Shown: in pieces, positions 708 through 30,700 of the stretch
Numbering within the stretch: the first letter of the stretch is position 1
Layout: every line of letters begins with the position of its first letter
Assembly (NCBI GenBank): GCA_002633005.1
Contig: NMRA01000013.1
Coordinates: forward strand, 975,474-1,039,473
Origin: Phoronis australis
Lineage: Eukaryota > Animalia > Phoronida
Length of the DNA: 64,000 nucleotides
Direction: 5' to 3'
Translations under genes and position numbers: made by a program
The notes under the pieces: model-generated
Database searches by the model: none
Told to the model about the DNA's origin: nothing
Seen by the model: only the letters and a program-made list of their open reading frames with translations

Positions 708-3700
708 GTGACTTGCACTTGCAATCTGAAAGCATCAATAAACCTCTGAAATAAATGGTGGACGCAGTGACCTTTTGGTGGTCGCAGTGACCTTATTAAA
801 CAGAGATTAAATCTAGCAGTACCCTTAACAGAGTGTAACCTTAAAGTACCTTAAAGATGGCTGTTGGAATTCACACATTTCATATTTTGTCCAATTTAGG
901 GTCTAAACTGCAGTTCTTGCCTCTGTATCATCCCTGAAAAATGAAACAAATTGGTGTTCTAGTTTCAGTCGCATTTCTATGGAAGAAATGGGGTGTGATT
1001 TCTGCAAATGGTATTCAATAGCTCATAGATGATGTTTTTGGTAAAAACGTGTCCTTGTTTTTGATCTGTTTTATCCAGACCTGGAAAACCCGCCATTTTG
1101 AAAGCACCTTCCGAGTCGGCAAAACTACAAGATCTATGAATATCTACCCATAATTGCAAGCTGCTCTGATAATTTTCACAAGTTGTTTCTTACCTGTGAT
1201 ATTCTCATTATTACGTGCCTGGCTAAAATGCCATTGATTCTGACTTTTCCTGGAGCTGACCCGGCCCTCGTCGGTGGTGATCTCTGCTGTCCCTGAGCTC
1301 CCTCTACACATTCCCTCCACGAGTACTTCCCGTCACACACTCTAGTTTAAGACTGAATACACGAGGCTAGACAATTAGTCTTGTAGCAAGCAAAGCGTCA
1401 AACTCTATCCACTTCACTATACCGTTTTAGTAGATAATGTGTTCTGACTATGGGAACAACAGCATTTCAGCTCTGAAAAGTAGTATCTTTTTCGTAAGAT
1501 GAGATTTTAATTAAATGTTTTGTTCAGACATAGAGATTGTGAACGGCCTCAACTGGACGTATCACCTGGACGAAGTCTATAAGCAGAACCTGCAAAAGGA
1601 TCCGGAACTGCTTTGGCAGTACTTTGGCAGTCAACGGGGATTCATACGCAGCTACCCAGGTTGGTGCATTCATGGTCATAAGGAAATGTTTCGCGGGCAC
1701 TCGATATCTGTATGATGCAACAGACTGACGATGCAAAGTTGGGCAGATCTAGCAAGACTTCTGTCGCATTCGAGACACAGTGTAGTTTCTACAGAGCACT
1801 CAATTTTGTGTCTAAAATTTAATGATGTATGTATTGAGTATTCTTGATAGACAAGTTGAGGATTTAAGGCAATTTATGGGGAAAACATGTTGTCATTGAA
1901 ACTCTGAAGGTGAGATAATTAGTCAGCCTGGCCTAAGTTGTCACACTGTTGGGCTGCTCTAGCAACAAACTGGTCTCACTCATTAGATTAGAAAATCAAG
2001 ACTGCTAGTAAGCCGGACTCACAAGAAATGTGCCACGTCCTCCAGTATCAAACTGAGGAAAGTAAACCCCTTTATGGTCTGAGGTTTTAGTGCCCTAATA
2101 GGCTGTAAGATAATGCAAGCTAATATTGGCTTGAGTAGTAAATGAGGTTGGTGAGCTTGTGGACTATACGGGCTTTGTGACAATCGTAAAATTGCTAAAA
2201 ATGTCATCCTTCCTGAAATTTCCTAATTTTCCCCATTATGGACATTTTTTGAGAACTTTTTCTAACTTTATTTGACTTGTTTATTGTGTAGTGTGGTGCA
2301 CACGAAAGTGCAGTGATGCTAGACACAGCTATACTGCTAAGCCTCAACACACGTCAACATTCCATGAAAAAAATTGAAGTCTTCATCTTTTTCAACTGAG
2401 CTTTGGTGCAGGCTAAGGACTTTGAAAAAAATCCAAAAATCCCCAGCGCACTTTTGTAGTCAGTAAATAAAAAAGCAGAATTTGGATGTTTCGTGCAAAA
2501 ATTGTGTTTGTGGAAAATTTGGCGATCTCCGTGACATCGTGTTTCGTTAAAAAAAAGCATCCAGCACATAACAAGAATCTGTGATTCTGTTACTTTTGAC
2601 GTGGTCTGTTGCGTCATGACCATGATTTCTGTTCGCCAGGTACAAAATGGCGCCGTACAAGTGGTGTGGATCTCTATGACGTCCGCCGAAGACCGTGGTA
2701 CACGCAAGGCTCCAGCTCTCCAAAAGATATGTTCATTCTTCTTGACACGTAAGGACTTGTTGCCAAAATTCTGCCATAATAGTATGCTTGGACAGCTGTT
2801 TCTTGGGGTTTAAGATATAACTCTAATGATCACATCTGGGTGTTTGTTACTTATGTTTTCCTTAAATGCTGTTAGGACTTATTCAGTTAATTGACGCACA
2901 GGAGGCGAGGTCTGTTTAATCTTTATACCTAAGATATTACTTAACCAATCAGATTGTGTTTTTGTTTTCCTGTTTTCCTTAAATGTAGACCGTGTTTTTT
3001 CACTTGGTTGACAAGCAATTATTAAATCCATTGGGCAGAATCTGATTTTTCTTCATATTTAAGATATGATTGTACAAGTCGAAAATGTTTTTTCTTGTTT
3101 AATTCTGTTATCCGTGAATGTAGACTATTTTATTCTTTTGATATAAATAAAATATTGATTTATAAGCAAATTGAACTGAATACTGTATTTGAAATACATG
3201 CGACATCGTTTAATTTTTCGTACTACTTGTTCCATAACTGATCAGTCTGCGTAAGTCGTCGGCTTTCCTTCTTTCTTTCGGACGAGGTGTCACTTCCATC
3301 ACTGTCTTAAAGGCAGCGAGTTAAGCTATGATGTGTGTACCATGTCTGTAATAATATGCTTAGCTTAAATTAAATTATCTTGAACCATCTGTTGGCATCC
3401 TAAAGCAAGGTATAGCATCCTCTGACAAATGGGTTGTTTTATAATTAGTGCCTTTATCACATTGTTGTGATGTTTCGTGCCTGTATCCCGCGTTCATCTT
3501 CAGGAGTGGCAGCATGCACGGCCAAGGCTTGCAACTGATGAAAGTCACAGTCAAAGTGCTACTTGACACCCTGGGCGAGAACGACTATGTTGCAGTGGCA
3601 AATGTAAGTTTCCATCTTCCAATGCCACTCTCATCTGAACTTACCTTTGTTTGAAGACACTTTGATTCTCTCTGAGTTGTGGCGAGTGACCAATGGCACT

Positions 3701-6700: not shown

Positions 6701-9700
6701 ATCTTAATTTCAGGTGCGCATATTCACCTACGCCATAGGTCAAGGTGCTGGGCCAATGGATGCTGCCAAGTATTTTGCCTGCAAATATAGAGGTCAGTAG
6801 CATATGATTGCTGTGTGCAGCAGTTAAAAGATTCAGAAGTACAGTGTAGGACATCCTCTGTACTCGAACTAGCTTTTATATTGGGGTTCATCAAGTGCCA
6901 ATTTGTGTCATCAGGTGTGAATTTGGGTCATATACTTGTGGGGTAGACCTAAGTTTATGTACTCAAGCACAAAGTCTTGATTTTATACTAAACTAGAACT
7001 GTAATGTCAAAAACGTGTTGTAGCGGTGAAGTTCAGATTTTAGATTTCAAGATAAAGTATTCAGTTAGACCTTGGTTATTTGAAACCTACTCAATGGTTT
7101 ATAATCAGGTCATGATCTTTATGACGCCATGTCAGGTTAACAAGACTGGGATGTTCAGAGGTTGAGTTGACTCCCGTATGCTTGAGGAAAATCCTACAAC
7201 GATCTCTCATTAGATCATTTCGATGATTCCCAGATATAATGCCTCTTGGCGCTTTCTGGGTTATGTATATTCATTGTATCGAAGATTTCGTAATATAAAA
7301 AAAAATTTCGATGATTCCTCTTTGTTGCCTACCTGTTTCAACATTTTTGAAAAAAGAACTTTATTAAATTAAGCTAATGTAGTTAGGGTGTGCTTCACCA
7401 AGAACTGTGAATGGAGAATTTGCTGTAAAATTGTTGGTGTTTACAAAGCGTCTTCACCTAATTTTTGTTTTTTTATAGGGTACTACTCTCCCATCACTGG
7501 AATGGGTGCCATAAGGACCAAAGTTCAGGTTGGTAAAATACACTTTATAGTAGAGCAATTATGTTAATGTTACGTGGTGCAAAAGTAAAATGCCCAGATT
7601 TGGCGAACTTTGGAACATCATGTTATGTGAAATGGCTGTGTGATTTAAGTAAAACTTTCAGACGCCCTGTTCTTCAACATGCTGCTAGGAATTGTTTAGG
7701 AAATGTTCCATTTTTGCATGACTGGATGTCAAAAGATAGGACTTAGATGATTTTTATGAAAAAAGTCAAAATTTGCAAAAAATTAAAAACAAGAGTGTAA
7801 TTTAGAAACAATGTTTTTGGAGATTTTGTCAAATGAAATTTGGTCAAGTTATTGTTACCGTTGTTTTGTTATGAATGCACCGTTCTTTTGTGTTGAATTT
7901 TGCTGAGAATACATGGTAATGTACTTTAATTAATGGCTGATTATTGGTAAATAGTTTAAAATCAAGCTCTACAAGGTTTTCTACTTTCAGAAAAAATAGG
8001 TCTTACATAACTGTGATCAAACCTGGAAAGTTACGTTTCATTTAAAAATATTGTGGAGTGTTTTGATTTGGCTCTGGTGGCAAAGTACCAACTATTTCAA
8101 TTATGAAGTCAGCACAAAATCTCAATTACCCTGAAATCTTATACATGACAATCGTTATTCCCTCAGGGAACTTAAAAATGGAGGTTTACACATGAAAGTT
8201 GATTGATATATGAAGCCATAGTGTTTACTGAAATATAAAGCCAGTTTTTTTTTCTTGTATTTTCTGCCAATCGGACATTACAGCTGTGTTTTCCATTTAT
8301 GACATGTATTTTGATGGTATAAGAAATGTCATGATTATCAGCACAATGTTTGTTTCAGGTATCGCAACATTCATTTTCAGATCCCTACTATACTGGATGA
8401 TGTTTCCTAGTTTTGGTCTCTTGAAATTGTTACAGATTGCATGCTGTCGTCCGATATTCCAAAGACGTAGTTTGACAAATACTGTTATTTGTTGCATTCC
8501 CGTTTCAGATATCTTGTTTTTGTTTCTCTCTTGTTACGAGTTAGCAGGATGAGTGTGGTAGTGTTCACTCGGGGGTGTTCACTCGGGGGTGTACACTCGG
8601 GGGTGTTCACTCGGGGGTGTACACTCGGGGACGTTACATTATCGTGTGTGTGTCTGGCTTGACACACACACCCTTTTTCCTTTAGCTGTAGAATTGCTTG
8701 TGGTGGTGAACACCATTAATTACAGTCAGAAAAGCAAAAACTGGAACCATTCGAATTTTGAATGTGAGCAGCCATTNCAATTACCTTGAAATCTTATACA
8801 TGACAATCGTTATTCCCTGAGGGAACTTAAAAATGGAGGTTTACACATGAAAGTTGATTGATATATGAAGCCACAGTGTTTACTGAAATATAAAGCCAGT
8901 TTTTTTTCTTGTATTTTCTGCCAATCAGACATTACAGCTGTGTTTTCCATTTATGACATGTATTTTGATGGTATAAGAAATGTCACGATTATCAGCACAA
9001 TGTTTGTTCCAGGTATCACAACATTCATTTTCAGATCCCTACTATACTGAATGATGTTTCCTAGTTTTGGTCTCTTGTAATTGTTACAGATTGCATGCTG
9101 TCGTCCGATATTCCAAAGACGTAGTTTGACAAATACTGTTATTTGTTGCATTCCCGTTTCAGATATCTTGTTTTTGTTTCTCTCTTGTTACGAGTTAACA
9201 GGATGAGTGTGGTAGTGTTCAGTCGGGGGTGTACACTCGGGGGTGTACACTCGGGGGTGTACACTCGGGGACGTTACATTATCGTGTGTGTGTCTGGCTT
9301 GACACACACACCCTTTTTCCTTTAGCTGTAGAATTGCTTGTGGTGGTGAACACCATTAATTACAGTCAGAAAAGCAAAAACTGGAACCATTCGAATTTTG
9401 AATGTGAGCAGCCATTTAGATAGAAAAACTGAAAATCAGAGGATGAGCTTTAAACTGAATGCGACGAACATGGCTGGTTGAAATCGAAATGTTTGTTATT
9501 CAAAGTTATTATTGGCAGCAGTTATGGAACAGTTGCTTTCATTATGCTCAACATGTCATCATTTTCAAACCCTAAAGTCCGACACGGCGCTAAGTGAGTC
9601 AAACTGAGATTGCACCCCCATTACATCTAGACGTTACATACTGTCGTCATTTCTGTCTGGAGGGGAATCCTGCGTCTGCCTCAGTCTGTGAAAATATAAA

Positions 9701-12700
9701 GTTTTGTTAAAGATTGGAATCATCGAATTTATTAATGCTTTTCCATGTAATCTGTACCACAGTTATAACCCAGGGCTTGGAATTTTCCGCGGAAACGCGG
9801 ATTTCCGCTTTTTTCAAATGTGCTTTCCGCTTTTTTTATAATATTTCCCCGTAAAAAAATCGGATTTGATATAAAATTTCCGTGGCAAATTCCGTTCTTA
9901 CCGCGGCGTTGCAGACGACGTTCACCTCGCAAAAAAGCGGAAGTTGCTCTTTATGTTTCGGAGGAACGTAAATTGTCAACATTGCCGGGGCATCTGGGAC
10001 AGCGTGGTGGGATTTTCAATGGCGTCTCGTGTTATTGTTAAGCGCGGCGACAAATACTACCGCTCTGCAGCCAAAAATGTGTGGGTCGGGAGTGGACGGG
10101 CGAGCTAAAAGGACGCAGACGCATGCTACTGATGGTGGTAGCGTTTTTCTTTTTTTTTTTAGTCCTCCCGATTTTTGTCGGGGAAAGGTTCACATTGACC
10201 ATTTCATGGCTGGTTATCGGGCATGATTTGGGCCGTAAAAGTTTCAAAGTTTCCGCGTTTTTTGTCATTGGTTATTCCAAGCCCTGATAACCAGACAGTA
10301 TTTTGAATAACTGGCAATTGACAATTTTAAGAACCCTTTGAAAAATAAAAAGTGGTTAATATTAGGCATTTTTGGGGGGATTTCGCTGTTTAGAACCATG
10401 AGAGTTCTGGATCAGAACCGATGACTTCAAGCTGCTGCTATCTTTGAAACGCAAACATTTTGTAATTTACAGCTCTGTTTGTGTTTGCCTTATTTTGTTA
10501 TCAATTTGTATTTTTTTAAAGTGGACAGGTTTTTTTTTCAGAACTCTCATTTATGGTGACAGTTGTACCCACAATGCATCAGTCAGATCTCACTTAATGC
10601 TGACCATTTTAGGTGGTGGTTGCCAAAAATAAAATAAAATTTGATATTTAATTCATTTAAGTTCGAAATTCTGAGTTGTTTTGAATGAGCATTATTTGGA
10701 CTGAATTTGCTGGACGTGTTAAAATCCATTTTATGAAATTTTTAAGTAAAAACATACTAGCTGAAGAGGTGTCATTCTTTAAACAATTATGAGATTGCGC
10801 TTTTGCATTTTCAAGACCTATGGCTGTTCGCTGGTCTTCTCAAAGTACAGTAAAATCATGTAAATTTTGGACAATTTTTTATAAGTGATTCAAACATTGT
10901 AAGTGAATGTGCGCATTTAGTTTCTCAAAACATCTGATGGTAGTGATAGTATAGAACTTGAAAATAATGAAAATCTTTATTTTAAAGCTACTTCTTTAAT
11001 AAAATCCAAAAATGTAATATTTCATATGTGTGCCATAATTGGTGGAATGGTTCCAGAAAAGTATACAAACTTTATTAAAGACACAACTAGGCTTTTTGTC
11101 GCTATCAAAAAGTCTAGTCATGTCTTGAACGAAGTTTGTGTAAACAAAGGGCTACTAACGAACTATACTGATAGAAGTATACACGTATCTAGTTGTCTTT
11201 CAGTTGGGTGACATTCATGTTTTTATTGTTGAAATGTTTCTAGGAACACGTACCAGTTCTGAGTCGACCGCTGTGTCTGAGCAATGCCCGTTGGTTTCGA
11301 TGGAGCAACGTTTATTCGGACGCTTTGTCGGTACGGTATCAGATGAATTATTCATGCATCATGTAGACTCTCTTTGACAAGTGACGGCTTCATTATTTCC
11401 ACTTTCAGCATTCTGTCTAGTTGCCGTATCGGCCCTAATGCATGTCATCAGTATACATTCACTTGCATGACTTGGTTATTTCATTTTCCCAGAAGGCTGT
11501 GTTATGGTAGCTCTGCGGTTCATTGGTTGGTGGATGTTCATGCTGTCCAAAAATAATGCTGGTGATTTTTAGCGAATATAATAAGTAACCCTAATCTTGT
11601 TTTGTCATAATTTGGCTAAAAATCCTTCAATTTGGGTCTAAGTGATTGTAGTTTTTAAATTTCTAATAAAAGTGACAGCAGCTCAAAATGTTGTTTAGAG
11701 ACAGCTAATAGCTAGTAAAAACTGTATGCTAATAGGAATGGAAGAAACGTTTTGTTTATAGTATGCTGTTTTTCTAGAAAGATTTAAGAAAAGTCATGAC
11801 CTAACTAAAGTATTTTTCCAAAATTCTATCAAGATCAAATTTGGAAATTTTGTTTTTGTTGAAATATGTACTGTAACGTTTGTTGTTTTAATTCAGAAAA
11901 CATGCCATGGAAAAATTCCCAAAATTTTCCCATGTTAACCAAACTAGGCTTGGGCCTGACTTCAACTACATTGCGTTATACAAAATCATTGCATTATTTT
12001 TGGACATCTCTCAATTTAAAAATTTGGATGCATGCCATGGAACTGTTTTCCTAGCACATTTACAACTGCATGATTGGAACTCAATGACCAATCATCTTTA
12101 CAGGACATATCACTTTACGTACCATCTTGTTCTCCATTGTTTCAGGTCCTGTGCCGTGTTCATTTTCAGAGTCGGCATTTTTTCCTTTTCAGGGTCTTCT
12201 AATGTTGTTGTTGATGCCTATTGTTTCAAGGTATTGTCTTGTGGTAGGCATTGTCCAGATCTTGAACATGAAGGACTATTGGCTTTTATCTTTTGACTTA
12301 AACCTGCAAAAGTCGCAAATCTGACTACGAATAATCAAAAGTTGATTTTTGTCTGTGACATTTCTCAAAACATTCTGTCTTTCTGTTTAGTTGAGCGGAA
12401 TATGAATTTCTGTCTTTTGACTTCGAGTAACTGTTGTAGACAGATTTTCTTACTGTCAGCCTTATCCCTTAGGCTGAGTTTTTGTTAAACAGGCTAAGCA
12501 ATCTGTAGAGTACGGATTTTTAAGCACACGTCAGGACTAGAGCCAATAGACTCTCTTACAAACAGGCTCCATGGAAGAACTAATCTGGTGACACTTCTCT
12601 ATATGATGCTGATTCGTTCCTCCATGGCCAGCAGATGGCGCTGTGTACTATAGCATACCATAATGACTGCTGACACTTTCCTCTACAGTGACTGGCAGAT

Positions 12701-15700
12701 GGTGCTGTGCACATTAGCTTGAACTGGTAATTGCTCTTGTTTTTGAATGGTGAAATTTGCCATCTGTAGACAATGTGTTACTAGTAGCTGCTATCTAGAC
12801 AGTCTCAATTGTGGGTGTGGTATTAAAAATTATACTCTTTTCATTTTGTAGAAATATGTCTATGACATTGCGAAGTCGTTCGCTTACGGCCATTTCCAAG
12901 AAATCAAAGTCTCGGGCCCACATTATTACAACGCTGTGGTAAAGCTGCTATTGTGCTCGGTCGTTTTGTTTCTTCTGAATTGCCAAGTTTGCACTGGCCA
13001 TATAATGTTGCGTTCTAATGGTTTCTTGTTACGGTATTATAATTTGCCACTACGATTTCATTTGCAGAAGCATGCTGATACTTTGAGTAGACCAACAGCT
13101 CTGGCAGGCATTCAGGAATTTCAGTGGTCGAAAATTTATTACGACCGATGGGTAAATTTCCAAGAAGACACGCACGTGTCTAACTTGTAAACTAGAGTCC
13201 TAGCCAGCATTACTGCAAGCTTAACCCTGTCCTCAAACTAATGAAAATCTGTTGAGATTGATCTCTTGGTCTTTGAAGTCGCCACGCTCGACTGTTACAA
13301 GCTAACTGCTCTCGGTTGCACCTAGAAAGCTATCGCAAATGCAGACATGCATCCTCCCTATCTCAGCCTCCTCAGCGTCTTGGTACTGATCTAATACTAA
13401 CCATGTTTTCCATCGTCCATCTGCCTCGTTAAAATTCTTTTCTGTTAGTGTTGCCGCCATTTTCTAGCACGTTCATGACTGACGAGATTCTTCCTGTCAG
13501 ACGATAACAGTTGGTAGTGGACAAAGCCCATTCACTCACCTAACCTTTCCTCATTACAGCGTTAAATGTGCATGTCGAGGTCGCGTCTTGCACGACCTCT
13601 AGCCAAGTACTGCAACAACATCAAGTGCCTGCAATGAAAGACTTGTGCATGGATATGTCATTCTCTGGTCTGTAACGGGTAATTGCCATGAAACAGTTGT
13701 GAATTGTGTTGATTTGTTAATGGTTGAAGTCTGATCTCGGTTTAGTGAGCTCTCAGTGACATTTTGGTTTGAATAAGCACCTTGGCAGAGAATTTGGTTT
13801 AGAAAGCCATTAATGTCAGGAGACAATTGGAAGTTGTCGACTGCTGTCAAAAGAAAATGTGGTTGGGAGTGAAAAAATTGCTTGTCTTGTTGCAAATCAT
13901 GATGGAGATCTGAAAGACCATGGGCGCTCGTTACAATAAAATTTGAATCCGTTGTCAGCAAAAGTTGGGCGATTTCATATACAGAGAATCGCCAAGGACA
14001 GAAGTCTTGAGACTTCACAGAGTACTGAGATCAAGAAACTTGAGTTTTGTTGACTGTTCTAACTCGTGACTTTTTGTGGATGTGTGGTGTGATCACGTCA
14101 TTTTTGCCTTATCACATGGAAAATTCTAGAATTTTTTAATTATCAAGAGTACATTTAGATTTCTGCCTGCGTTCTGTGTCCATCTGCCATCAACAAAGTG
14201 GCTATATGCTGTAGTTGTGTTCACTCATTCTTTTATCCATTTCATCGGTGCAACAGCTGGGGTATTAGTGAGGCTTTAGACTTGACATATTTTTGTCAAA
14301 ATAGTCCTTATTTTGTGACCTGCTACAGAATAAGGGGATTTTTCAGTCAGTATTTAGATTACGTGCAGTTTAACCTATGCCTGAAATGTGTGCACCGATA
14401 CGTCATTTCACAATCAACTCTCTTTAGTTGAGGTAAGAAAACATTTTTGTGCGAAAAATACAGCAGTGTGAATGGGCGACTTAAAACTCACTAGGTGGCG
14501 TTAGCGTGAGAACGGTCCCACATGTATGCAATAACGGTCTGCCTACATTCGCACTCATGCTTGTGAAATACTTGCTGCTCTAAATTTATCCAGGTCTTCA
14601 AATGAGGAGTCTTTATTCTTTAGCGCCAACTGGTGAATGTAATATCTCCTAATTGACCTTTTCGTGGATACACAGAAACTAGAGGATTGTGGGAAATTGC
14701 TTTCTTTACAGCAGATGAATTTTCCAGGTCAGGTCACAGAAAGGGGAATTCTCTATTAATTCACTAATCGAGGCACGTCTAATGGGAACTAAGAGTCATG
14801 ACGATGCAGTTTCAAAAAGGACAACATATCCAACGTTAAAATACCTCATTATATAGCTTTGAAAAGTCTGAGGTGCAGTCTACGTACATGTAGATTTACT
14901 GGCTTTGATTGTGACAAAGTTTGCTAGATTTTATCTGCAAAACATTGAGTGATACAGCAAGACTTGAATAGCACCTGGGGGGAATGAGAGGCATTGGTTG
15001 AATTATGGTGTTTCCCGTGTGTTACTTGTCCTATGAACCTATTAAACTGCATTGCGATTCGTGACCTCCAAGTGATATATTAAGTGCTGTGATCCCACCA
15101 CATGTTGAACTTTGCTTTGCACTTTGTCCTTAACTTGTCTACATTGGAGGCATGACATGTTAAAACAAGGAACTTTGTTAAAAACACCACCATTGGCTAA
15201 GTTGATCATGTGACTTCATCTTTACCAATCAGAACCGAAGTTGAAAAAAGGTCATCTTGCTTTCTAGATGGATCTTACACAAACATTATGAATTGGGCAC
15301 ATAAACTCATACTTTCTGCATTCAGAATTTAAGCAAAGTGGTCCGAGTTTGGAAGAATTATCCGTCCTGGAACAACTTAATGGCCCAAATAGATTCGACA
15401 GTTTTCGACAGATTGGCAATCCTGCCCAAAACTGTACCTGTTCACATTAAAGGAATATCGATTTTACCGCCAAAAATTGCTCTTATTCGATTATTGTGAG
15501 ATGGGATGCCTAGCTATTAAACCTCACAAGTCATGATTATGTTTTTCTGATTGGCCAATTCAGTCATGCTGTTGTCTGGCACTTGTTTGTTGATATCGAG
15601 GCTGTTGACTGTATCAGAGATTCTTAAAATGTTCAGCTATTTATCAAGAGGAGTGTAGCTCTCGTAGCTCAGCATTAAACTACGGAACTATTTAGTGGTC

Positions 15701-18700
15701 ATGGGATTATTCTCATTTTAGTTGTACATAGAAAAGAAATTCCAACACTGTTTAATCATGCTTCTTTACCCCTAAAGCGCAGCCTTAGGCTTGCGAACAC
15801 CAAACCCATGGTATAAATTCCATACCCTGTGTGTAAACGCCACACATGTGGTGAAAATGTACCTTACCCTTTGATGAAATTCGAAACCTGAACAAGGGGT
15901 ATGGGTGAGAATTTGTTCCCTGGGTATGAAGGTGAATCAGTGGGTAAGGAGTATTTTGGGCACATGTTGTGTGGAGTTTAGGAGACGCAGGTATAGAATT
16001 TGTTACGCGGATCGGGTGTTATTGGCCCAAACTGAGGCTTAGGGGTTTGTAGCTGCCTTTAGAGGCGCCTCTATGGAATCGTTTCTTCCCCTCCGCTTAA
16101 TTCTGTTTTATTGCTACATTGTCTTTGAAATGCCTCCATTGTCGACAGTTAGGTTTGATCTTACTCACCTGCAAGTTTTTATGATTTCAGGTTTTTCACT
16201 AATCTCTTATTATAATTTGTTTTAGAGCCGTCAGCTAGCGTTTTGGTTGTAGTGTGAACTCACAGTTATTGTTTACTTTTAATCAACTTTTGGTTGTATT
16301 GTAGCTGAGTATTTGCACAGCAATCTGACACTTGGATTGTTTCTGAATCTTTGTTGTCTGATGGTTGTGATTCACTTGTTTTTATATTTCTTGAAAAATT
16401 ATATGTCCCCTTAAATTTTTATTACGAAAATATGAAAATGTTTTAAACGATGTATTTGCTATTTCGCAAAAATGCTTTTTCAAATTTTTGTCATTGTTTT
16501 GGCATTATTTTTTGAATGTGAGAAATTTTTCAGCGTTTCTTCAAAAGTTGAAATTCTGATTGTGATTGAATTTCAGGGTTATATACTTAATGGGTATCCT
16601 TATTTTTAAACTGTTTTTGTGTAAAGATTTATTTTGAAACTTTGACTTTGAATGTTACTTGGTATAAAAATGCCCGGGACATTAAATGGGTAAAATAATA
16701 TGTTGTGTTTTGTCAAACAAACGTTAATTCCATATTTCTAACAATTTTGGATTTGTTATTAGGCACTCTGGAAAGTTAAGTTAGTAGAAATCTCTGACGT
16801 TCTTTGATTGCTCGTTGTTACAGTTTGACTAATCTTATTTTCTGTTGACCAGGCTTACGCAAGGTCCGTTCAATATGCACTTGATTTGTTTCCTGAACTG
16901 TTGTTTTTTACTAACTGCTCAGCTATGCTTGCACCGGTGTGGGTTGGTAGGTTTAGGTATTATGCAAGACTTACCCACTTTTCTACCTTCTGCTTGTACC
17001 ATAGGAGTACCATACTGTTCTGTCTCGGCCTGTCGCACTGCAATCCTCCAGGCTCGGTAAAGACGTTCATAACTTCGATCACTTGGTAACTTGGCTGTCC
17101 GTAACTCCCATGCAACCTTCTTTCTTGCTCCGTTGACCTCCACGTAATTGTGTCTCACTTTTTCTTTACACCTCCGTCTCTCCAGTGCTGGCACTTCTTG
17201 ACTTGTCTCCCCTTGGCACTGAAAACTGGCATCAGGGGAGATTACTCTACCATAGAAGTGGGCATGGTTTTCAGTGAACAACTTGACTATCAAAATGTGT
17301 AGCATTACGTTTTTGTTGTTTACTGTTGACATTTTGTTGTTTTACAAGTTTTTTTAAAATATCTCTTTAAACCTTTTTTCTAAATAGTTGAATGTTAATT
17401 ATTGGTTAGTGTATGCACAAGTACGCAATGTTCTGTTCTATTATTTTCACGTTCGTCATAAAGCAGTACTTCTGTTTATTTATTTGTATTATTTTCTGAA
17501 GCACACAGGATGAATTTATTTGATTTAAAGTGACGTTAACAGCCTGTAGCAATGATTTGATAAATACATGGTATGGCAATCCCTAGTAGCCAACTTCGTT
17601 AATTGGACCTAAGCCATTAACTTTACTATCATCAGTATTTGATTAATCCTAAAAATCTTGCCAAATGAACTTGTGCTATTGAAAACCATGTATTTGTTTA
17701 GATTCTGCCTAATATAAACTAAACTTTATGAAATCTCTGTGATTACCAGTTAGCACACCTAATACACCATCTTAAAGTTTTCGTCTGACTGGTAGCTATT
17801 GGTTGTTTGTTTGTTGGCCCAGTGTTGCATAGGCCCTATCATGGACACAAATTTTCATACACGACTTCCAATTCTGGCATTAAAATTTGTCATCAGTTGA
17901 TTCGAAAACTGTTCTAATTTTCTGTTTAATTTGCTTTCGTCTTAAGACGATTTTAGTCTTAATTCAGACCTTTAGCCATCTTGCAATGTTGGACGTACTA
18001 TGGATAGATTATTTTCATGTGATTTGTGACTCGGACAATACCTGTGTGACACAAAATGGTTTACGTGTGCGATTCCTATCAGAAAGTACACGATCTCCTG
18101 GCCATTTTGTTCTTGTGTTGACTGACGTACTTGCACTCTCTGAGCACAGCTCCTGTTTCTGTTTTTAAGCTTCAACTGTTTGACACAATATCTTTTTAGC
18201 ATTTCTGTTCCGATCCCGAATGCCATTTGACGTTTTGATTCATTTGAAAATAATCACGTGGTTTTTGTTTATTTTTTTATTGAACTCAATAAGATATGCA
18301 ACGCTGCTTCCAGTGTAAGTGGTCACGTGAAACTTGCGATGTTTTGTTCCACTGTGGTCATCATTTTGTACCAAGACTTGACCCAGATGAGTTAAAGGCT
18401 ACAGGAGATTTGGTCTTGCTTTTGTTTTTGTTTTTTTTTTGCTTCATTTTTTTAAAAAGACATCCTCTGGCCGGCAATGGCATATTGGTGTAGATTAAAA
18501 AATTCTAAAAATTTATTTCAGAAAATATATGCTTTTACTTATACCAAGTTAAAGCTAGATGGTACAGATTGCCAATAAGGTTACTTAAACTTGGATATAA
18601 TATCTGATCTAAATGTGAAAAATGGTGATTTTCCAAAGAGTCCTATTTGTTTCACTTCACTACCATCGGACATGTGATTTTCATGATTATTGTTAAAATT

Positions 18701-21700
18701 CAGGCAATTGAATCCAAGGATCGGGTAAGAAAAAAAGATGACGAGTCTTAAAGGATCTGGGTTTTACTAAGATTAATTTATTTCTTCAGATATGTTCAGT
18801 AATAATAATGTCATTTCTAAAATATATGGGTCTTAATACATCAACCTCTAGCCTATGGCACGAGGTTTCTGTCGATCACTTCTCCGCCCATCTTCAGGTG
18901 TTACAGCGTTAAAAGAATGAGTACGTGTTTACGATACACTCACAGTGGTCGACGATGAGCATTTCTTTTCCTTGACGCACACTTGGGATTGAACTAGGGA
19001 CTTCTAGATTGTCAATCTAGTACGCTAAGCACTGCAGCACTGAGTCGTCCATTGAGTTGTGCGTTCTTTTAAGGATGCTGTAAAACTTAAAAATGGTCGG
19101 AGAAATGACAGACTGAAATGTCGTGCCTATATATTAAATAGGCCAGAGGTTGGTGTAAAGAGACCAATAGATTTTAGAAATGATGTTACGAAATTAGCAC
19201 CTCAAAGCGGTTTTAGGAAGACACTGTTGTAATGGTTGTCTACCTGGATTAGGATTGTTTGTCTGCATAAATGTACGCTCCAAAATACTTTATTTAGCTT
19301 AAGTCTGTGCGGACTGTGACACGTGTCACGTGACTACATGAGCACGTTTTTGTTCTTGTCCTCAATAACCACGACAGATTAATTATGTATGGGTGGCGGA
19401 ATTGAATGTCATTTGTAGACAAAAGTTTTTTTTAGGTCTTACCAAAAACCAAAATCAGTTTGAGTTTAACATGTGGTCACTCTGAAGCTCCGTCCTGGAA
19501 GTACAATTATTTGATCACTGTATGTATTATGTTAAAACCAAATTTACTTTGGTCAAATGAATGAACATATCTTTGTTTGCTGTATTTTGTTCTCATCAGT
19601 TGGTCTCTGACAAAGCATTATTCTTTACCGAAGTCTGACGTCTCATTTTCAAATCATTAAATTTGTATTGTACTGCCATGGATGGGCTCTCCGTTTTAAA
19701 GATCTCATTTTCTGTTTAGCAACCTGGGAATTTTTGCCAGACCACATTTAGGGTCTTGTTGTAGACAACAATATTTAGGTGAAAATGTCAATCTGTTTAT
19801 TCTTAAGTGTTTCCTGCCATCTGTTGGCCAGCACGATGACTCACAAGCTAGTTAGACCATGCTTGAAAGTATTACTGGAAGCTGTTGCTAATGCATTAAT
19901 TGTGCTGCCCCACGACTTAGATCAGCCTTCCTGATATTGTGGACAGTTGGTTCTCGCTGTTCTTGTACTTATCTATTTACAAAGTACACGATGTTGTGGA
20001 AAGAGGTGTGTGTCACCCCCTTTTTGGTTAAGTGAGCAAGCATTTGCCTGAATTGCAAATGGTGTTTCATCGGTCTGTCTCGGGCAGTTTCAAGCACGTG
20101 TTGTCATGAAGTCATGTGACTCGTATCATGTCTTGCACAAACTTTGTCTCCATGCACTGTTGCCATATATGTGGGATGGAAGGTTGTGATCCTAACCTGT
20201 GTCATGTATATAGAAAGAAATTTAACTCCTAATCTGCATAGTTCCATGTATGTTCTTACAGCTGTTTGGGGAGCACCGCAGTTCTCATTGGGTTTTGACT
20301 AGCAGAACTTACATCAATGGTTTTGTCACCTTCACTCTGTTGAAAACCGTACCCAAAGGCTGAAAAGTATTGAGTCATTTTACATAACAGCCCTTCAGAT
20401 GAGCTCAGAAACATTATTCTGTCTTGGTAGACTAAGAAAAAGGGGTAAAAAGAAGAAAATTAGCGTTTTCACCCCAAAACCACCACTTCCTTGTCGATGA
20501 GTGACATAAGCCAATGCTAGATTCTGAAAGCAAATTTTCTACAGATTCCAAAATGTGCTGCAAAGGGGCTGTGGACCAACTAGATTTTTTTGAATTGTGG
20601 CTTATTTGAGAGCTAAATGCTACTTAGCAAGCACAAATGCAACAGGGGCAGCCACCACCTTGAAAAAAGTGCATCAACTGCCGAACAAGTGGTCTTTTCT
20701 CATTCCTAAAAAATAGGAAACCGATTTTTTGAAGGTAAAAAGCTCAATTTTAAATTTGTTTTAGCCAGCTGTGAAGTGCAGCTTTATGTTTTCTGCAGTG
20801 GAAATTGACGTGTTTTGTTTAATTTACACAGCATTTGAGTTGGAATTGCTTTGTGGAGACTGTGAAGACAGTAAGAGAGCTGGCTGTCTTGATTCTGAAA
20901 AAATACACTCACCATTTCATAGCCATGAATGTCAGCAGTGACATTTTCCTAACTCTTGAACCTTGCAAAGGAAACTTTGGAATTCCTGGATTGCAAATAT
21001 CAGCATTTGTTCCAAATAAAAGCATTTTCTTGGATTGGTGTTGCACAGTGGAGTTTAATTTGGTAATACTTTTGGGACACCCTATATTCTCATTTTTTAA
21101 AGTTTTGGCAAACCTTTTCAACATTGTCTGCATTATGTTTACTTTCTTATAATAAAATAATAATTATGATAATAATATCAATTTTAATTGTCTTTGACTT
21201 CCCCTTTAAAATCTTATTTTGCCATTCAGGATGTGATAGTGAGTGCCTTGTGAATTATTTTTTGGTAATGGTTTTTGAGTGTGTTTGATTGGCTCTGTGT
21301 ATTTAAAACAGTTATCATATATGGACCATCCCTCAGCAGGTCATTTTATGTGCCAAGTATATTCTCAGGAATTATTAACGAATTGTCAGTTCTTTCCGAC
21401 TCCAGAACCCATCGTGTCTCATCTGAGTAAGGAACCAAGTTGGGACCAGTTTAAAAACCTTTAATGTTCGTAATCCAAAGTTATGTTTCGCTGATGAAAT
21501 GTGGGTTCATAGTATTGACCGTCATTGTCGGTTATTCCCTGTGTCAGCTCCAGCCTTGCCCCAAGCCTCAAGATGGGGCTGATCGGCTTAGCCATTTGAG
21601 GCTTGGTTATGGGAAATGTGTCAGAATTCTGACATACTTTACAGAAATTGCCGGAATATCACAAGTAATATAACCAACTTTGAAATTCTCTTCAGTGTAG

Positions 21701-24700
21701 TATAAAAATGAAAACTAACAATATATTGCAGCAATTTAGGTCTAAATTATTGCAAAAAGTGATATATTTTGATTTGAAAACAGATTAATTTCTATGATAA
21801 GAAAAGAATTGAAGATGAGTTTGCCAACAACCTTTATTTTAAACAAGAGTCAGAATAATGCCTTCTGCTTTATTAATGGCAGCAACAACACCTGCGGAAA
21901 TAATTAAAATCTGCCTTTGTTTTAATGACGTCAAGGCAGCAGCCATTTATTACGCAGAAGGTGTTTGCCATAACCAAGCCTCTAATGGCTAAACCGATCA
22001 GCGCCATCTTGAGGCTTGGGGATGAGGCTGTGACAGCTCAAGCATTGTTAAAGTGCCAATTTTGAAAATTATTGTTTTGGTTCATGGTTTGGGGTGGAGC
22101 CATCTGTTTTGTTTTGTTTAATACTGCTAGTTCTTGTTTCTAATTGGGGTTCGTAGACTGGTTCAATGGGAAGATCCACAGCCATCAACTTCATTTATTC
22201 CAGTTAAATTGATGTTTGAGATTTCAGTGTAACATAATTAAATGTTGTGTCAAGATCTTCAATAAAGATCAAATTTGATGTAGAATTATAGCAGTTTCAA
22301 TTTGTGTCCGTTTGAAAACACTTCGTAATTTTTAGTCTTGAAACATGCTTCTTTTGCGCAATCGTGCTTTGTGTTCGCTTTATGTAATTTATGTTTTTGT
22401 CTATTAGGCATGGTTTTCTGTATGTTCTGTGTATTATTCGTTTGAAAACAGCTCAACAGACATTATAAGTTCCACGCACACACTCACTCCCCCTGTTGCA
22501 CAAAATTGTGAACATTGGTTGTGTATTGCATGAACTTCCTGTCTGACGTGTGTAAAAATTGACTTTAATGCAAATTTGTTCGTTTAGTGAACTTTTTTTT
22601 AATATTGTTCAATCTTTAAAAGGATTACCGCCACAGAAAATTCTCACCTGAAACAACTGATTTTTCCATTTTTCAATGAATACCCACAATGTCTCAACAC
22701 AGTGGGTGGTTGCTATGGTTTATCTTGTGTTTTATAAAAAAATGAAAAATAAAATTTCTCTCGTGTCCTAACTTGGTGAGATTTTACTGTAATTTGAAAA
22801 ATTTTGTTGCACCACAAAATTTTTGTCATGTTTTTTTATTCTGTACTGGTTTTATTTATGGTACAAGTTCCTTATTGCTGAACACTCAACAATTCTTCAT
22901 TTCCTAGTAAACATTTGAATGCGACAGGTCCTTAATTTAGAAGTTAAGCATTGTTTAATGCACGATTGTCAAAAAGTTTGGAAATTCATTTTTCTGGGAA
23001 AATCAAAAGTTTCACTGTCCCAGCTCGACTACCATACTTATCACAGTTAACACCCATGTTGACTCTCCTATGCTAGTATACTGCAATGGACGTGTGGCAC
23101 TGGCAACATAGGTCAGGTCGGGCATTGCACAAAACACCAGGGCCGAGTTGCATAAAGCTTCAATAGTTATCCGCTGGATAAGTTTGATTGTTGCATGACG
23201 TTAGGTGCATTGGTCAACAATAACAGCGTGGCGCGTGATCATGTTGCTATACGGCGTATAACTTTTATGCAACTGGGCCCTGATTTAAAACTTATGTTAA
23301 GTCATTGTGCTCTTTAGATAAGTTGCAGATGTGCTTAGCTATCTATGCCACATTCATCTGTTATTCTTGCGTGGCATGTAAACCAAGTTACTGCCCACAG
23401 AGGGCATCCACAACCACCACTGCTTCAGCTTGTCTGGTCATCTCTCTTCACCATCTACTCAGAAGGATCGGTGGTTACCCGGTAGTCTCACTTGATACTT
23501 CTGACCAAATGCTGTAGGGTCCATTGATTTCCAAGAGCAAATGTCTACAGCAAAAAGTTGCTTCCACATTACCTTGTATGCAATGCCTCAAAGCAGGGTA
23601 AAAAACGACAAATGTCTAGACAAACGCCCGTTGCCGAGAATGTCACATGCCTACATGTTCGTGAAGCTATCCATTTATAACATCCATAGCCTCGACTGCT
23701 TATGCTATTGCGTTGTCATCTCAACCTTTTATCAAGGAGCTGCTAAATGCCCAATGCCTAATTTTCAAAGTTTATTTTTTTAAATGAAGATGGTGCGTTA
23801 TACAGTCATGCACCATCAAGTTATACAGTCATGCACCATCAAGTTATACAGTCATGCACCATCAAGTTGGTCACAGTCATGCACCATCAAGTTGGTCAAG
23901 GCTTTGCTGTTCCTTAAATCACCATTTGTTAAATGTGACTTTTCACTTCAGCTCCTCAGACAACGCAATTTGCTTTGAATTCCTTTAAGCGTCATGTTGC
24001 TGGCATTCTGTCTTATTTTTAGTTAATTCTTACTTGTGATGTGGCTTAGCCGGGTGACATTTTTACACGTCTTCCACGGTCTGTTACACGTGGCTGTTTA
24101 CGCACTTGGTGTTATTGAAAACTACACTTTTGATTGCCCATATTCCGGTCAATACACATTCTCTGATTTTTAAAATTTTCAATTTTAACGCTCTGCTCCT
24201 GGGTCGTTAATCCAGATGAGTATGGTAGACGGGCTTGAATAAAAGGACTTGTACCATATTTTAATGTTCTTCTTTTTTACTTTAAGTTACCTCCCTGTTT
24301 TAAGCTATTGCATTGTCACTTACATTTCTTCACATTTTTTGAAGAAAATTATGGAGTATTAAACTGAACTAATGGATTATTGTGCCTGATATTTCTCTGC
24401 GTGTGAGATTTTTTTGTATTTAACTCAATGAACTAACAAATTAACTTGCACGTATTAATTTGTTCTAATGTTTTGAACATCTCTTATACAAAATTCAAGA
24501 ACTATCAACATTTTTGTCTGCTGTATGCCGCTATTAATAATTAGCGACTAAAAATTCATAGATACCTGTTGTAAACTGAAAGTCTGTATTGAATTTTTGA
24601 AAGTTTTATTGTTTTTTATTTTAGGGTCTTGGAATGATGACAACGTTAACTCTGCCGGTGTACAACAGGAGCGCTGAGTCAGTATGTATCTTTTGTGGTG

Positions 24701-27700
24701 CCTAGTTTTGTACTTTGCCACTAGGTGGAGTCTTGCAGTAGTTGGTGCTGCAGGGCTTACCATCTTCATTTTCTTTGGTGACCTGGTAGAAATGCTGGTT
24801 GCCACGAAGTCGACATGCCAAATTTGAGCAGGCTCTCAAAAATACTACAGACAGTATACGGATGGAAGTCAGAACCCTTTGGCAAAAATTGGGATAGCCC
24901 GACCATGTTCACCTGAGTCGGGAGGTGATCCTGTGCACAGGATAGTGGGCTGGGGAAGTTGGCAGTTGTTCAAGTGCGCTGATTTTCCGTTAAAGCAACA
25001 TAGACGATACAGGTATTTTTTGTAGTATTACTACCAATGTGTACCAGTGTACAGCTTTGACAGTGAGTTCAATGTCTGCTAATGGCAACTTATTCTGACA
25101 CTTTTTGTCCCACCACAGTCCAACCAGACCATACTGGGGGTGATGGGCGTGGACGTCACCACGAAGGACATGGAGTCGCAGACACCTAAAAGGGAGGTGA
25201 GTAGTTTGGCCAACAACCTTCAGTTCGGAATGGTATCTCAAAAATGATTTATCCGGAATGCAAGGAATTTTTGGTAGTGACATTTCTGTAAAATTTGGAA
25301 CACTGAATGTTTTCTTGTAGTTATTTTGTTTTTAGATGTGTGTGAAATGATGGATGATGCCTCAATTTTTACATTATCTCATTCATGTGTTGGTAATTTT
25401 TTTTTCTTTTTTTTATAATTCTTGATACAAAAGCCGAAATAGTAAAATGTGGAACAATTTATTGTCCGTATCCAAAATGTTACTTTTCCCTGTATTTTGA
25501 TTTGTATGTTTTCGGCATCACTAAAATACGTGTGAAAGCGATAGTGGGGGTGCTTAAAATGTTTAATATTTTGAAATTATAGTAATTATTTAACGTGAAC
25601 CCAAAGATGTGGTGCTGTAAAAACAATCTGTAAACTCGGGCAAAGTCATGTTTCTTATTCAGTTTGCAATTTCCATTTGTTGCTGCTATATTTCTTTATT
25701 TTTTTAGATTGGTATCCGCGGTTACGCTTTTGCAATCAATGCCAACGGCTTCATAGTGTTCCACCCCAACTTGAAGGGACAGGTACAGTGATTTTTAATG
25801 TTGATTGAGAATTAGGTTTTTGAATATCCAAACTACTTTTTGTGAACTTAATATTTTGTATATGCGTGTATTTATGCCAATGTGCCGTTATCCAAAGTAG
25901 TATGATTTATTTCTAAGATAGATTTTTGTCCTTGTGTTTTTCATGTGGTAGCATGCACCTTAGCCTCACTTTATACATGTAGGTGGTGTTGGCTATTTCC
26001 TTGCGGGTGTTTTATGGGCTTTTATTCATTTTTATCACTTTTCAAATAATTATTAATCAAATGCCACTGTTTTGTTACTGCTATCTAATTTCACTCTTAA
26101 ATTTCGCACCTGAGTTTACTCAAGTGTTTCACATAACAGTGTGGGCACCAAATTCCAAATATAGCTGCAGCCGGCTTCACCTGAAGGCGCATGGGCCCAA
26201 TCAGACATGTATTATGCTTTTTAATCAAAAACACCATTGACTATTAGTTGTATTGATCTGTAAGCCTGCTAGTTATTATGAAGTCATGGCTCTTGCCTAG
26301 TGATATTATTTGGTTGAGGAACTTTTTTCGCCACCATCTGCCAGAAATTCTCATTTTGAGGCTTTTGATGGCGAATGAATGACTCAGCGTGATCAGCTTA
26401 TCTTGCGAGGATGTAATGAATTCTCTGAATAATGATTTCCATGGTTTTGTTAGCATTTATATAAACAAGTCGGAAGTAATGGGCCCACATTTTGAGAACC
26501 AGATTGATGCCGTTATGCTGTGGAGAAAACTGGTTCTCAATATATGAGCGCGTTATATCTGGCTATTACCCTGTTGTGGATTTTCTCAGAATTTGGAGAA
26601 TGTTGAGTGATCTAACTTGTATTCTGATCAGTGTCTGATTATTTTGTTCGCAGCATGGCTATCTCAATGATCCTCCCAATGTGGACCTCGTGGAAATTGA
26701 ATGGAGCAGTAAGGACAAGCTAGAGGTAATTAGGGATAGTCTTGGCATCCTTCACTTGCCCAGAATTTAGGATAATACGCGAACGGTAAAGTTTCCTCAA
26801 ATTTGAACAAAAATAATGGCCAGAATTGTGTGCGTTTCTTTAAACATTCACTGTATTGCCAGAAGTGGTCGGAATTGTGCTGCGTGTTTGTTGAAGACAG
26901 CCGAACTCTGTCAAGTTTTCAAATAATCAAGGGGTTTTTTACATTAACTCTTTAAAAGCAAAATCTTAAAATTTGAACACGGGAGATTTTTTTCTTAATA
27001 AGTTTATTTACCGAGAAAGCACATCATTAGTGAATAGTAAATACGCCTGGGGTTGGGTGGTCCCAACTACATATCTTTACAGCATACTAGAGGACAATGC
27101 GTCATATAAATAGAACAAATAAGTATCTGGAAAATAACTCCTAATGATTGGACGGATAATTGGCCGAGATTATTATAAAAGGGGGAGGGAAACGGGAAGG
27201 GGAAGGACTTTCATACACTCATTCACACTTACATTCACACGGTTTAATTAACTTATTTGTTTACACTAGGTGCATGTTTATGAAAAGGTCAAATTTCTTA
27301 TAATACGACATAGAAGTGATGAAAAAATAACACCATATATTGTTTGAATCATTTCAAAAGAGATGCCTGCAAAACCCTCCACTGTTCTGAACTTTTATCC
27401 AAGGTGTCAAAAAGTATAAATTTGAACTTATTGAAAGAAGGTTGAGACCCATCTCTCGATGATGTATAAATATAATGTTGAGCATGAGTGTATATGGTAT
27501 TGAATATTTCACTTAGATTGCTAAAGAAGCAAACTAAGAAGTGGTACAAAGATGGCTCAGTGTGTAAGTTAAAAACTTTATGTACGAAATGATGTAAAGA
27601 ATTCCAGAAGCATTTAACACAGAAGCAGCTGTAAAACGTATGCTGAAAAGTCTTGACCTCGCCACAGTAGAGACATTGGTCTGTTTATGAAACATCAAAT

Positions 27701-30700
27701 ATTTTTAACTGAATTCTTTTGTGGATGAAAAAGTACTTATTAAATATTGTCAAATGAGGGTTTATGGGTAGATTGAAATAGAGATTATATATTTGTTTAA
27801 TTTTGTGTAATAGTTGAGCAAAGACACACAATTATCTGGTTTCACAGAAACTTTAATCCATGAATTGGAACTATTGAACAAAAAAATGTAATGTTATTAC
27901 AAGTAACAATCCTCCTGTTTATCCCCACTCAGAATTTTCAGAGGATAACATTGAATGAATATGTTAAACAGTTCTTCTACAAGTTTAAACCATAGGCAGA
28001 TTTTGGGGTGGAGGACTGCCCCCCCATGCCTACAGAGGTCTGACCAAAAAGTTGGCATCTACGACTTGAAACGTCATTTTGCATTAAAAAATCGCCGTTG
28101 GCTTCCTTGATCTACCAGAGTGTAGAACTAGTCTAAAGTTGGTCAACCCTCTAGCCGATGATAGCAAGCTAATTAAGTGGTCCCGCAGTTTGAGAATCAG
28201 TTTTTGCTGCTGAATAACTGACATTGAACTGATTCTCAAAATCTGGGACCCCTATAAGTGACTACTGCCCCCAATACAATGCTACCTGTTCTTCCGAGTT
28301 CCTCATGTGTGGCAAGTTTACTCAGCTGGTATAGTCATGTAATCAACTTTTTGTCCATTCCTGACAAAAATATTCTGATTTTGTTTTTATAATAATAATT
28401 ATTTTCAAGTTATCAAACTTACCACGTGTTATCATTGGTGTTTTACATTTTGTTTTTAGATGAGGAAAAGAATGATACGGAATGAAACAGGCTCTCATGT
28501 GATTGACAATTTTGTACTTTATGAAGCTGAGGTGAGTTTATTTTGTTTTTATATATTTTTGCTTGTGTGATGAAAATTATAATTTGGTTGCCTGAGACTT
28601 TTTGCAGTTATGGTCACAGTGCCCAGAGTACAAACGTTGTTCAGTTGCGTCTTGTATTTTTAGTTACAAATTGATTGTATCTAATTTTATACAACATTCC
28701 TTTTCAAAACCAGCAATGGTACGACAAAGTGGATAATGAATAAATTTTACAAACACATTTAATTTAGTAAAGTATTTTCACTCAAATTGGAAACATGCGG
28801 TGTGGTTAATGTTTTACATTGAGTTGGAGAGTGACTGAGCAGACGTAAGCGGCTGATCTTCTGACTGAATCTGACGTCCGTCTGCAATCTGGCGAAGATT
28901 AATGTGTGAACGGTGCATTTTCATTGCACGACGTGTTGTTTCAGAGATATATAAGGAAAGAAAAACTAACATACTACTTTCGTGGGATTCCGGGCACAGA
29001 ATTTAGGTAAGCTGATGCCTGAGACAGACGTCTGTCATTTTTAAACTGAGTTTAGAAAGTAGAGTAAGGGTTAGATTTCTAAGTCCTTGCCACCTTATTG
29101 TATTTTTGCTTTGTGGTCTCAGGTACGAATAACGAAGAAATAAATTTTCAAAACTGTGCTGCCTTGGAAGTGAAAAATTAGGTCACTATGTGTTGTCTGC
29201 TTAATGAGTGGATTGTTTTTGTCCTGTACATTTCGAGTCCTATGAACTAAACACAGATATCATTTCTACTCAGACAAATAGAAGTTTAGTGTTACCATAT
29301 ATTAGTGCTATAGATTTTTAGACATATTAAAACAAGTGTACACAGTCACTTTCTTTGTTTGACTTCATTATATTGATAAGAATTCAGGATGTCAAAGTCG
29401 GGGTGTCTGAAAAGAGCCATTTTGTTGGCAGCATCACCTGATCACTTGATTTCTTGCTAGGAACAAACTGCGATGGATTTGATTGTTAAGCGTGATCATA
29501 CTCAACGTGGAGTTTTGACGTTGATCAAACACAGAAGAAAACTTTTGTGCTAGAAAGTCTAAAGTTAATATAACTTACGCAATTGAAATAACATAATCCC
29601 TATTTTAGCAAGAAAAGCAGGACCTACAATAAATTTCAATTAAAGTTGTCGCACAAAATAACCTTTCCATCACAATTGTTTTATTCTTTTAATACCAAAA
29701 ATGTCTGGTATTACTGTCATGGCTACAAAATTCTAATGACAATGACTAAGCAACCTTTATTTATTAGTAAATTTTCTATTGTTTCGCCTTCATTCTCAGT
29801 CAATAAGGCTACTTTGCCGATGAATTCTGCCTGCCGTTGTGACAGGGAATTTTGGATCATTTTGCCTACCCTTTTCATGCTCTGTATTCTGCTTTCTTGT
29901 ACTTGAAGTATTGGATTTGCTATTCCGGAGGGCGTCGAGAAGTATCTCAAAGTTAAACCGGGCAGCAAAACTGCAGGTAAGAGATTATCAATCTCATCAA
30001 TTTAGGACAAAATGATGGATTAGTGAATTTTTTCTCACTGTTAGAAAAGATTGTGCGTGGGATTTTGTTGAAGCTTTGCCTTGTTCAAGTATGGTGCACA
30101 TACCTACCATCAAACTGGTACCTACTCCGCGTAAAGCGTGGCGTTCACAACAAAGTTTTAGCTTTTAAAAAGCCCTGGGGAAAGTTAAGAAATGGCAATT
30201 TTTATAATTATTTTTGTCCGTCGTTGCTGATAGTTTACCGTATGTTAAAAAGGTTCAAGGTGTACACCTTGACTGGTTCACCTGTACCTGGTTCCCAATT
30301 GCCATGGTGTCGGTGCGCAGATGGAGGTTTATTAAAATGGAGGATTTTACGTCACAGGGAAGCATTTGTATTTCGATGTCATAGATTGAAAGAGAAAATA
30401 AAAAAACGGAAACCAAAAGGCACCTTGACCTCTTCTAAGCACGATAGCACCTAAATTTAGGGTTCTTCAAGCGACCAAGAGGCTCATCTGTGTAAAGCAG
30501 TCAACTTGAGCTTGTTATCACAGTCACTGTCTAAACCTTCTCGTGTTTGCGACACTGCTTTAATCTTAGCAAATTAAAATGTATGTTTATCAAAAAATGA
30601 AAATTATAATTGAAATTATGTCTTTTGGTTGTTAAGATTGCTTGTCGTTCCGATGTACCATTTCCAGTCGGTGGCAGATCTTAGATATCATGAGGGAGGC

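Follow-up and report, generated by a model that had tools for sequence, protein, structure and literature searches.

A tandem exon cluster in the Phoronis australis alpha2delta gene

A stretch of 64,000 nucleotides from the phoronid Phoronis australis (assembly GCA_002633005.1, contig NMRA01000013.1, positions 975,474 to 1,039,473 of the forward strand; hereafter the window) carries on its plus strand a gene for the channel subunit alpha2delta (CACNA2D). Its VWA_N, VWA, Cache and VGCC_alpha2 domains were colinear with those of named family members, as judged by Pfam searches of single open reading frames and by tblastn. In a tree of 29 proteins, built from 505 columns of the fixed exons (including 22 columns from one of 16 window pieces that was in the wrong frame and was kept in), the gene grouped with that of the brachiopod Lingula with support of 100/99 and 54% identity. 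A preliminary description of the window had proposed that three exons, A, B and C, fill one slot in the protein between the constitutive exons 7479-7528 and 24625-24681. These three exons proved real: AG/GT ends were present at the positions given below for A, B, C and both flanking exons, A to C were open in phase 0 with lengths of 87, 87 and 84 nt and translated as previously written, and all three occupied the same place in the protein. Their number had to be revised. A scan of the intron at 7529-24624 returned 19 open phase-0 candidates, including an overlooked fourth homologous exon, D, and no fifth copy resembling A-D was found when all 820 AG positions were scanned. The features that bear on the cluster are listed here, with residues in human numbering.

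1528..1659, plus strand: constitutive exon carrying W205, V207 (Tyr here), A215 (Ile here) and Y217 (Ser here), placed by sequence and tblastn
2640..2748, plus strand: constitutive exon carrying W223 and an intact YDVRRRPW (Y236, R241, W243), the carboxylate half of the amino-acid motif
7479..7528, plus strand: constitutive exon 5' of the cluster, end of the VWA region (...GAIRTKVQ), with a phase-0 donor, placed by tblastn
11244..11330, plus strand: exon A, 87 nt/29 aa, canonical type, ending Y450-S-D452-A453-L454 with one extra Ser
12852..12938, plus strand: exon B, 87 nt/29 aa, most divergent, ending Y450-Y-N452-A453-V454, homologous to the Owenia slot
12939..13067, plus strand: B-C intron, 129 nt, with two branch-like sites, at 40 and 80 nt past the B donor
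13068..13151, plus strand: exon C, 84 nt/28 aa, ending Y450-Y-D452-R453-W454
17005..17085, plus strand: candidate exon D, 81 nt/27 aa, ending N450-F-D452-H453-L454, with an open frame and canonical sites
24625..24681, plus strand: constitutive exon 3' of the cluster (GLGMMTTL..., with L456 and T461)
25119..25196, plus strand: constitutive exon containing an unaltered GVD, with the motif aspartate D491

Likeness among the copies was assessed against shuffled sequences. The scores of A with C (65) and of A with D (39) were each reached by none of 2000 shuffles, and C with D scored 28 (p = 0.006). No likeness to A, C or D was detectable for exon B (p = 0.53, 0.08 and 0.95, respectively). B matched the slot of a protein from the annelid Owenia through a common SFAYG (score 32, equalled by 1 of 500 B shuffles run against a set of 75 segments), and it is because of this match that B is counted as homologous. 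The top match of exon D reached 51, compared to at most 30 for shuffles, and exon A found its closest match in an isoform segment of the nemertean Lineus that is nearly exon A itself (score 98). Exon A alone aligned to residues 425-454 of human alpha2delta-1 with an E-value of only ~0.7, and the full-length alignment of the Lineus relative put the slot at the same residues. Pfam searches with exons A, B and C taken singly gave no alpha2delta match, and a word-based homologue search from one window exon returned nothing among 59 candidates. Overall, the copies are homologous (weakly and indirectly for B), lie in tandem in the same phase, are of similar length and carry canonical sites, as expected of a tandem duplicated exon cluster, and we regard it as almost certain that they form a real alternative-exon array.

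The cluster in relatives and the probable use of single copies

Three mutually exclusive alpha2delta exons at the VWA-Cache boundary were reported previously in Aplysia, Crassostrea and Octopus (Dunn et al. 2018, PMC5818475, Fig. 1, Table 1 and supplement). The cluster is therefore in print for molluscs (Table 1 of that paper). Among the family members listed, 17 isoform sets were assembled (16 molluscs and Lineus, some sets being incomplete). At least two single slot versions were present in 17/17 sets and at least three in 14/17, with four in oysters and scallop. A single version was found in each of the 34 sea urchin sequences listed.

Mutual exclusivity, suggested in the preliminary description, was gauged from the gene models of relatives. 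Most isoform models of the relatives, which are automatic annotations and carry no abundances, contained one segment (69/95), but exclusion looks leaky: two joined segments occurred in 18/95 models (10/17 species) and none in 8/95 (8/17 species). All copy lengths are multiples of three, so that skip and double forms remain in frame and the frame provides no filter. On balance, the copies are probably used mostly one at a time. With the overlapping B/C flanks set aside, a docking-site search with exact 9-mers left no bin above the null and revealed no docking-site/selector pairing. The B-C intron contains an AG-free stretch of 80 nt, the longest of the 20 acceptors measured (others, 14-64). Under the donor-to-branch-point distance rule, a branch point as near to the B donor as the 40-nt site could prevent B-C joining by steric hindrance. 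The idea is tentative, since the site at 80 nt has the better branch consensus.

A metagenome survey of 43 loci yielded further copies. Four candidate tandem copies were present in an annelid-like genomic locus (L009) and two in each of two genomic loci whose closest named proteins are from copepods (L006 and L008); genomic locus L012 held one copy and L014 one further last copy, and in L029 and L036 the slot region was cut by contig ends. A copepod-like full-length transcript (L003) contains the second, tyrosine-less copy; the first is the one found in named copepod proteins, and the Lepeophtheirus X14 model skips both.

A tree of 93 slot segments (28 columns kept) paired exon D with copepod-like exon 2 (98/97), and placed B and D on long branches (2.12 and 1.27). 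Both D and copepod-like exon 2 have lost Y450 and keep a D-H-L end. With 28 columns, 43/90 branches open and the long branch of D, the tree does not decide between a single origin and repeated duplication of the arrays, nor does it settle one-to-one orthology of A-D with the mollusc classes, here M1 to M4. Assignment of exon B to class M2 was considered and dropped (mean score -0.3, z 1.8, partial scoring).

Several other features of the relatives were recorded. At ~6960-7710 of L009, tandem duplication also affects the VWA exon that lies two exons before the slot, possibly forming a second exclusive pair. Lineus isoforms P0155-P0161 carry optional short inserts of 6 and 9 aa that come after the slot and lie within the hairpin covering the pocket. 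An annelid-like transcript (L002, 1292-1397) contains another divergent slot segment with Asn at 450 and ~22 extra frame-breaking bases ahead of it, and three models from the small-genome annelid Dimorphilus (P0089, P0253 and P0093) each contain a different, strongly divergent slot segment.

The swapped segment in the dCache_1 pocket

In the gabapentin-bound structure of alpha2delta-1, 13 residues line the pocket (10.1101/2022.12.05.519047, PDB 8FD7). By alignment, the slot supplies 4/13 of these, human Y450, D452, A453 and L454, which correspond to rabbit Y452, D454, A455 and L456. The dCache_1AA amino-acid motif comprises five residues, Y450 among them (PMC8915833), and rabbit A455 and L456 belong to the positions at which the gabapentin-insensitive paralogues diverge (10.1101/2022.12.05.519047). 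The motif residues Y236, R241, W243 and D491 are all present in the fixed exons of the window, where YDVRRRPW and GVD are whole, as had been stated. With the register read from the alignment, positions 450/452/453/454 are YDAL in A (plus an extra Ser), YNAV in B, YDRW in C and NDHL in D. Y450 is accordingly kept in A, B and C, and D, with Asn at this position, has lost the motif tyrosine; exon B has the Y-x-N previously noted, and its RP and W are gone. The placement of the slot in the dCache_1 pocket thus agrees with the preliminary description, and it is well supported by the alignments that the exon forms part of the pocket wall. The exon appears to encode the helix leaving the VWA domain together with a strand-hairpin bearing Y450, D452, A453 and L454. 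Predicted models of the Lineus (A-type) and Owenia (B-type) proteins both showed the slot as a helix, two short strands and a hairpin, and the top structure match of the Owenia model was 8FD7.

The pocket positions differ in conservation between the mollusc classes. Y450 and D452 were present in 16/16 segments of class M3 and in 5/5 of class M4, and class M1 had Tyr in 12/21 and Asp in 5/21. Tyr450 was found in 0/20 segments of the fast-evolving class M2, where only four columns were kept in at least 16/20 segments; three of these are pocket positions, D452 (18/20), P453 (18/20) and R454 (16/20).

Possible ligand tuning and competing explanations

Judging from the residues that are exchanged, ligand tuning may be the main purpose of exon choice, and we assign this reading a probability of about 0.5. 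Exon A would be the ordinary amino-acid-binding form, exon C, with its Arg and Trp, would have a narrowed and recharged pocket, and exons B (Asn for Asp) and D (Asn for Tyr) would have weakened or altered amino-group binding. Because pocket occupancy governs surface trafficking of vertebrate alpha2delta-1, selecting the exon by cell type would determine the response of channel delivery to ligand.

Several observations weigh against ligand tuning, among them the double and skip models described above. Transcript data came from three raw-read runs of the same species label over the stretch 9420-29400, with exon 7479-7528 lying outside it. They show transcription and splicing of the gene: with the three runs summed, 28 to 41 reads covered each of five constitutive joints further downstream, and the joint from 24625-24681 to 25119 had 32. 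None of the 15/42 joints listed for this stretch runs into 24625 or touches A-D, with 14 reads for the weakest joint listed, a pattern that fits reads split over several upstream exons, skipping from 7479-7528, or a limit on long skips. The missing A-D junctions would also be expected if B and/or D were decaying relics that are no longer spliced in Phoronis australis, an idea to which their long branches lend some weight. However, both exons are still open, their lengths are multiples of three and their splice sites are canonical. Counterparts of each also occur in transcripts, annotated or assembled, from other animals, and decay is considered very improbable.

In X3, read depth was 0.79 in the bin containing exon A and 3.74 in a bin with a 78-nt constitutive exon (X2: 0.30 and 0.66), so exon A is not in most X3 transcripts. 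Sense-strand intronic depth across 13422-24093 was ~1-8, similar to or above that of constitutive-exon bins, which may mean late splicing. This intronic signal masks B, C and D in the read depth. A minority share for exon A could also indicate a switch of dose, in which only A, and perhaps C, would be functional, while B, D and the double and skip forms would be pocket-dead or poorly folded and would set the amount of alpha2delta. The double and skip forms remain in frame and exist as models, including Lepeophtheirus X14. Furthermore, the B-type model has low confidence, with pLDDT < 50 at 327-351, the first half of the slot. The A-type and B-type models share a single alignment, the Lineus and Owenia proteins serving as stand-ins for the two types. 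Against a switch of dose, residues peculiar to each divergent class are conserved in gastropods and bivalves alike, which an off switch would not need, and a full-length copepod-like transcript (L003) carries the tyrosine-less copy. We therefore consider this explanation improbable, though less so than decay.

The pocket itself raises further difficulties. In the fixed part of the window pocket, V207 is Tyr, A215 is Ile and Y217 is Ser, and the small residues at V207 and A215 that mark gabapentin-sensitive types 1 and 2 are thus replaced by Tyr and Ile. V207Y is predicted to occupy the space of the gabapentin ring (10.1101/2022.12.05.519047), and the insensitivity of alpha2delta-3/4 has been attributed to a bulky side chain in place of the alanine (PMC9901441). 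Given this predicted clash at V207 and the Ile at A215, gabapentin binding is unlikely with any of the four exons, and the pocket can hardly be called gabapentinoid, as it had been in the preliminary description. R241 is required for gabapentinoid binding (PMC8915833). In a survey in which 52/56 proteins were parsed, this residue was Gln in 17/18 gastropods, including abalones, limpets and pond snails (e.g., P0058, P0061 and P0222). Abalones, Pomacea, Littorina, Physella and Biomphalaria nonetheless keep three slot versions, so classical amino-acid binding cannot maintain the cluster there. R241 is also replaced in UNC-36 of C. elegans, where arginines of the slot segment were reported to contact ligand in simulations (10.64898/2026.09.15.751774, section 2.1), and the segment may thus itself supply charge where R241 is gone. 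In addition, the function of the pocket in eukaryotes has been called unknown, with no natural signalling role established in animals (PMC8915833).

Most of the exchanged sequence, ~25 of ~29 residues, lies outside the pocket lining. The exons could be real and tune the VWA-Cache helix or loop for folding, export, channel docking or synaptic partners, with the pocket change a by-product. Exon B and mollusc classes M2 and M4 have no RP motif at that helix end, the gastropods retain the cluster in the absence of R241, and synapse wiring is altered by a splice variant of vertebrate alpha2delta-2 that affects another part of the Cache region (PMC9901441), all of which would suit such a role. Conversely, the conserved columns of M2 gather at the pocket end and not at the helix, although this DPR end could be kept for hairpin shape, and copepod-like exon 2 and window exon D agree in the loss of Y450 and the retained D-H-L end. 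A linker role is a possible but rather doubtful account of the cluster.

If ligand tuning is pursued further, a broader proposal follows that we put forward only tentatively and hold to be somewhat less probable still than a linker role: the array predates the mollusc-arthropod split, and protostome neurons and muscles reprogramme the pocket by splicing between canonical, tyrosine-less and recharged states. If true, the actual ligands of alpha2delta would become apparent from the pocket series, and splicing would do the job of the four vertebrate genes. The alpha2delta pocket is known mainly as the gabapentin site. Isoforms that differ in a single pocket wall and have been retained over hundreds of millions of years make its normal role testable in one protein background.

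Repeats and assembly features near the cluster

A 654-bp tandem duplication at 8123-9416, 96% alike with a single N at 8777, probably represents overlapping contig ends or haplotypes, i.e., an assembly artefact. An element of ~515 bp at 9771-10286 ends in inverted repeats of 13 bp (CAGGGCTTGGAAT) and is flanked on each side by a 6-bp direct repeat, and the hundreds of reads that end loosely at both of its edges point to a high-copy, non-autonomous transposon-like repeat. At 1-416, within an alpha2delta intron, lies a 79-bp tandem repeat of about five copies.

Comparison with known systems

The cluster is real, old and already catalogued in molluscs; new here are the fourth exon, the wider spread and the link to the pocket. 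The mollusc exons of Dunn et al. share with those of the window the gene, the slot (RVQ...GLGMM) and the presence of three or more alternative segments (PMC5818475). They differ in that the window has four copies and comes from a lophophorate, and copies also occur in nemertean, annelid-like and copepod-like sequences. The available text of Dunn et al. 2018 makes no link to the pocket (PMC5818475), the motif of which was published in 2022. No literature linking the slot exons to the pocket, or placing them outside molluscs, was found, although subscription papers and supplementary alignments may differ.

Compared to the dCache_1AA motif and gabapentin site of alpha2delta-1, the window gene has Y236, R241, W243 and D491 in fixed exons and Y450 in A, B and C, while here Y450, D452, A453 and L454 are on a swappable exon. 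With Tyr at V207, Ile at A215 and Ser at Y217, its fixed pocket is nearer the pattern of gabapentin-insensitive alpha2delta-3/4. Splice regions A, B and C of vertebrate alpha2delta-1 likewise concern the Cache region, and the variant without C binds gabapentin less (PMC9901441). In contrast to the cluster, these regions are described as loop insertions or deletions away from the slot, with no duplicated-exon substitution and with the pocket residues unreplaced (PMC9901441). In tandem duplicated exon substitutions generally, as in the window, homologous in-frame tandem exons swap one segment (PMC8373072, PMC9741552). Compared to such systems, no docking-site/selector pairing was found in the window, and the target of the exchange is the wall of a small-molecule pocket. 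This sets the cluster beside more familiar tandem exon clusters, of which Dscam and Mhc are examples.

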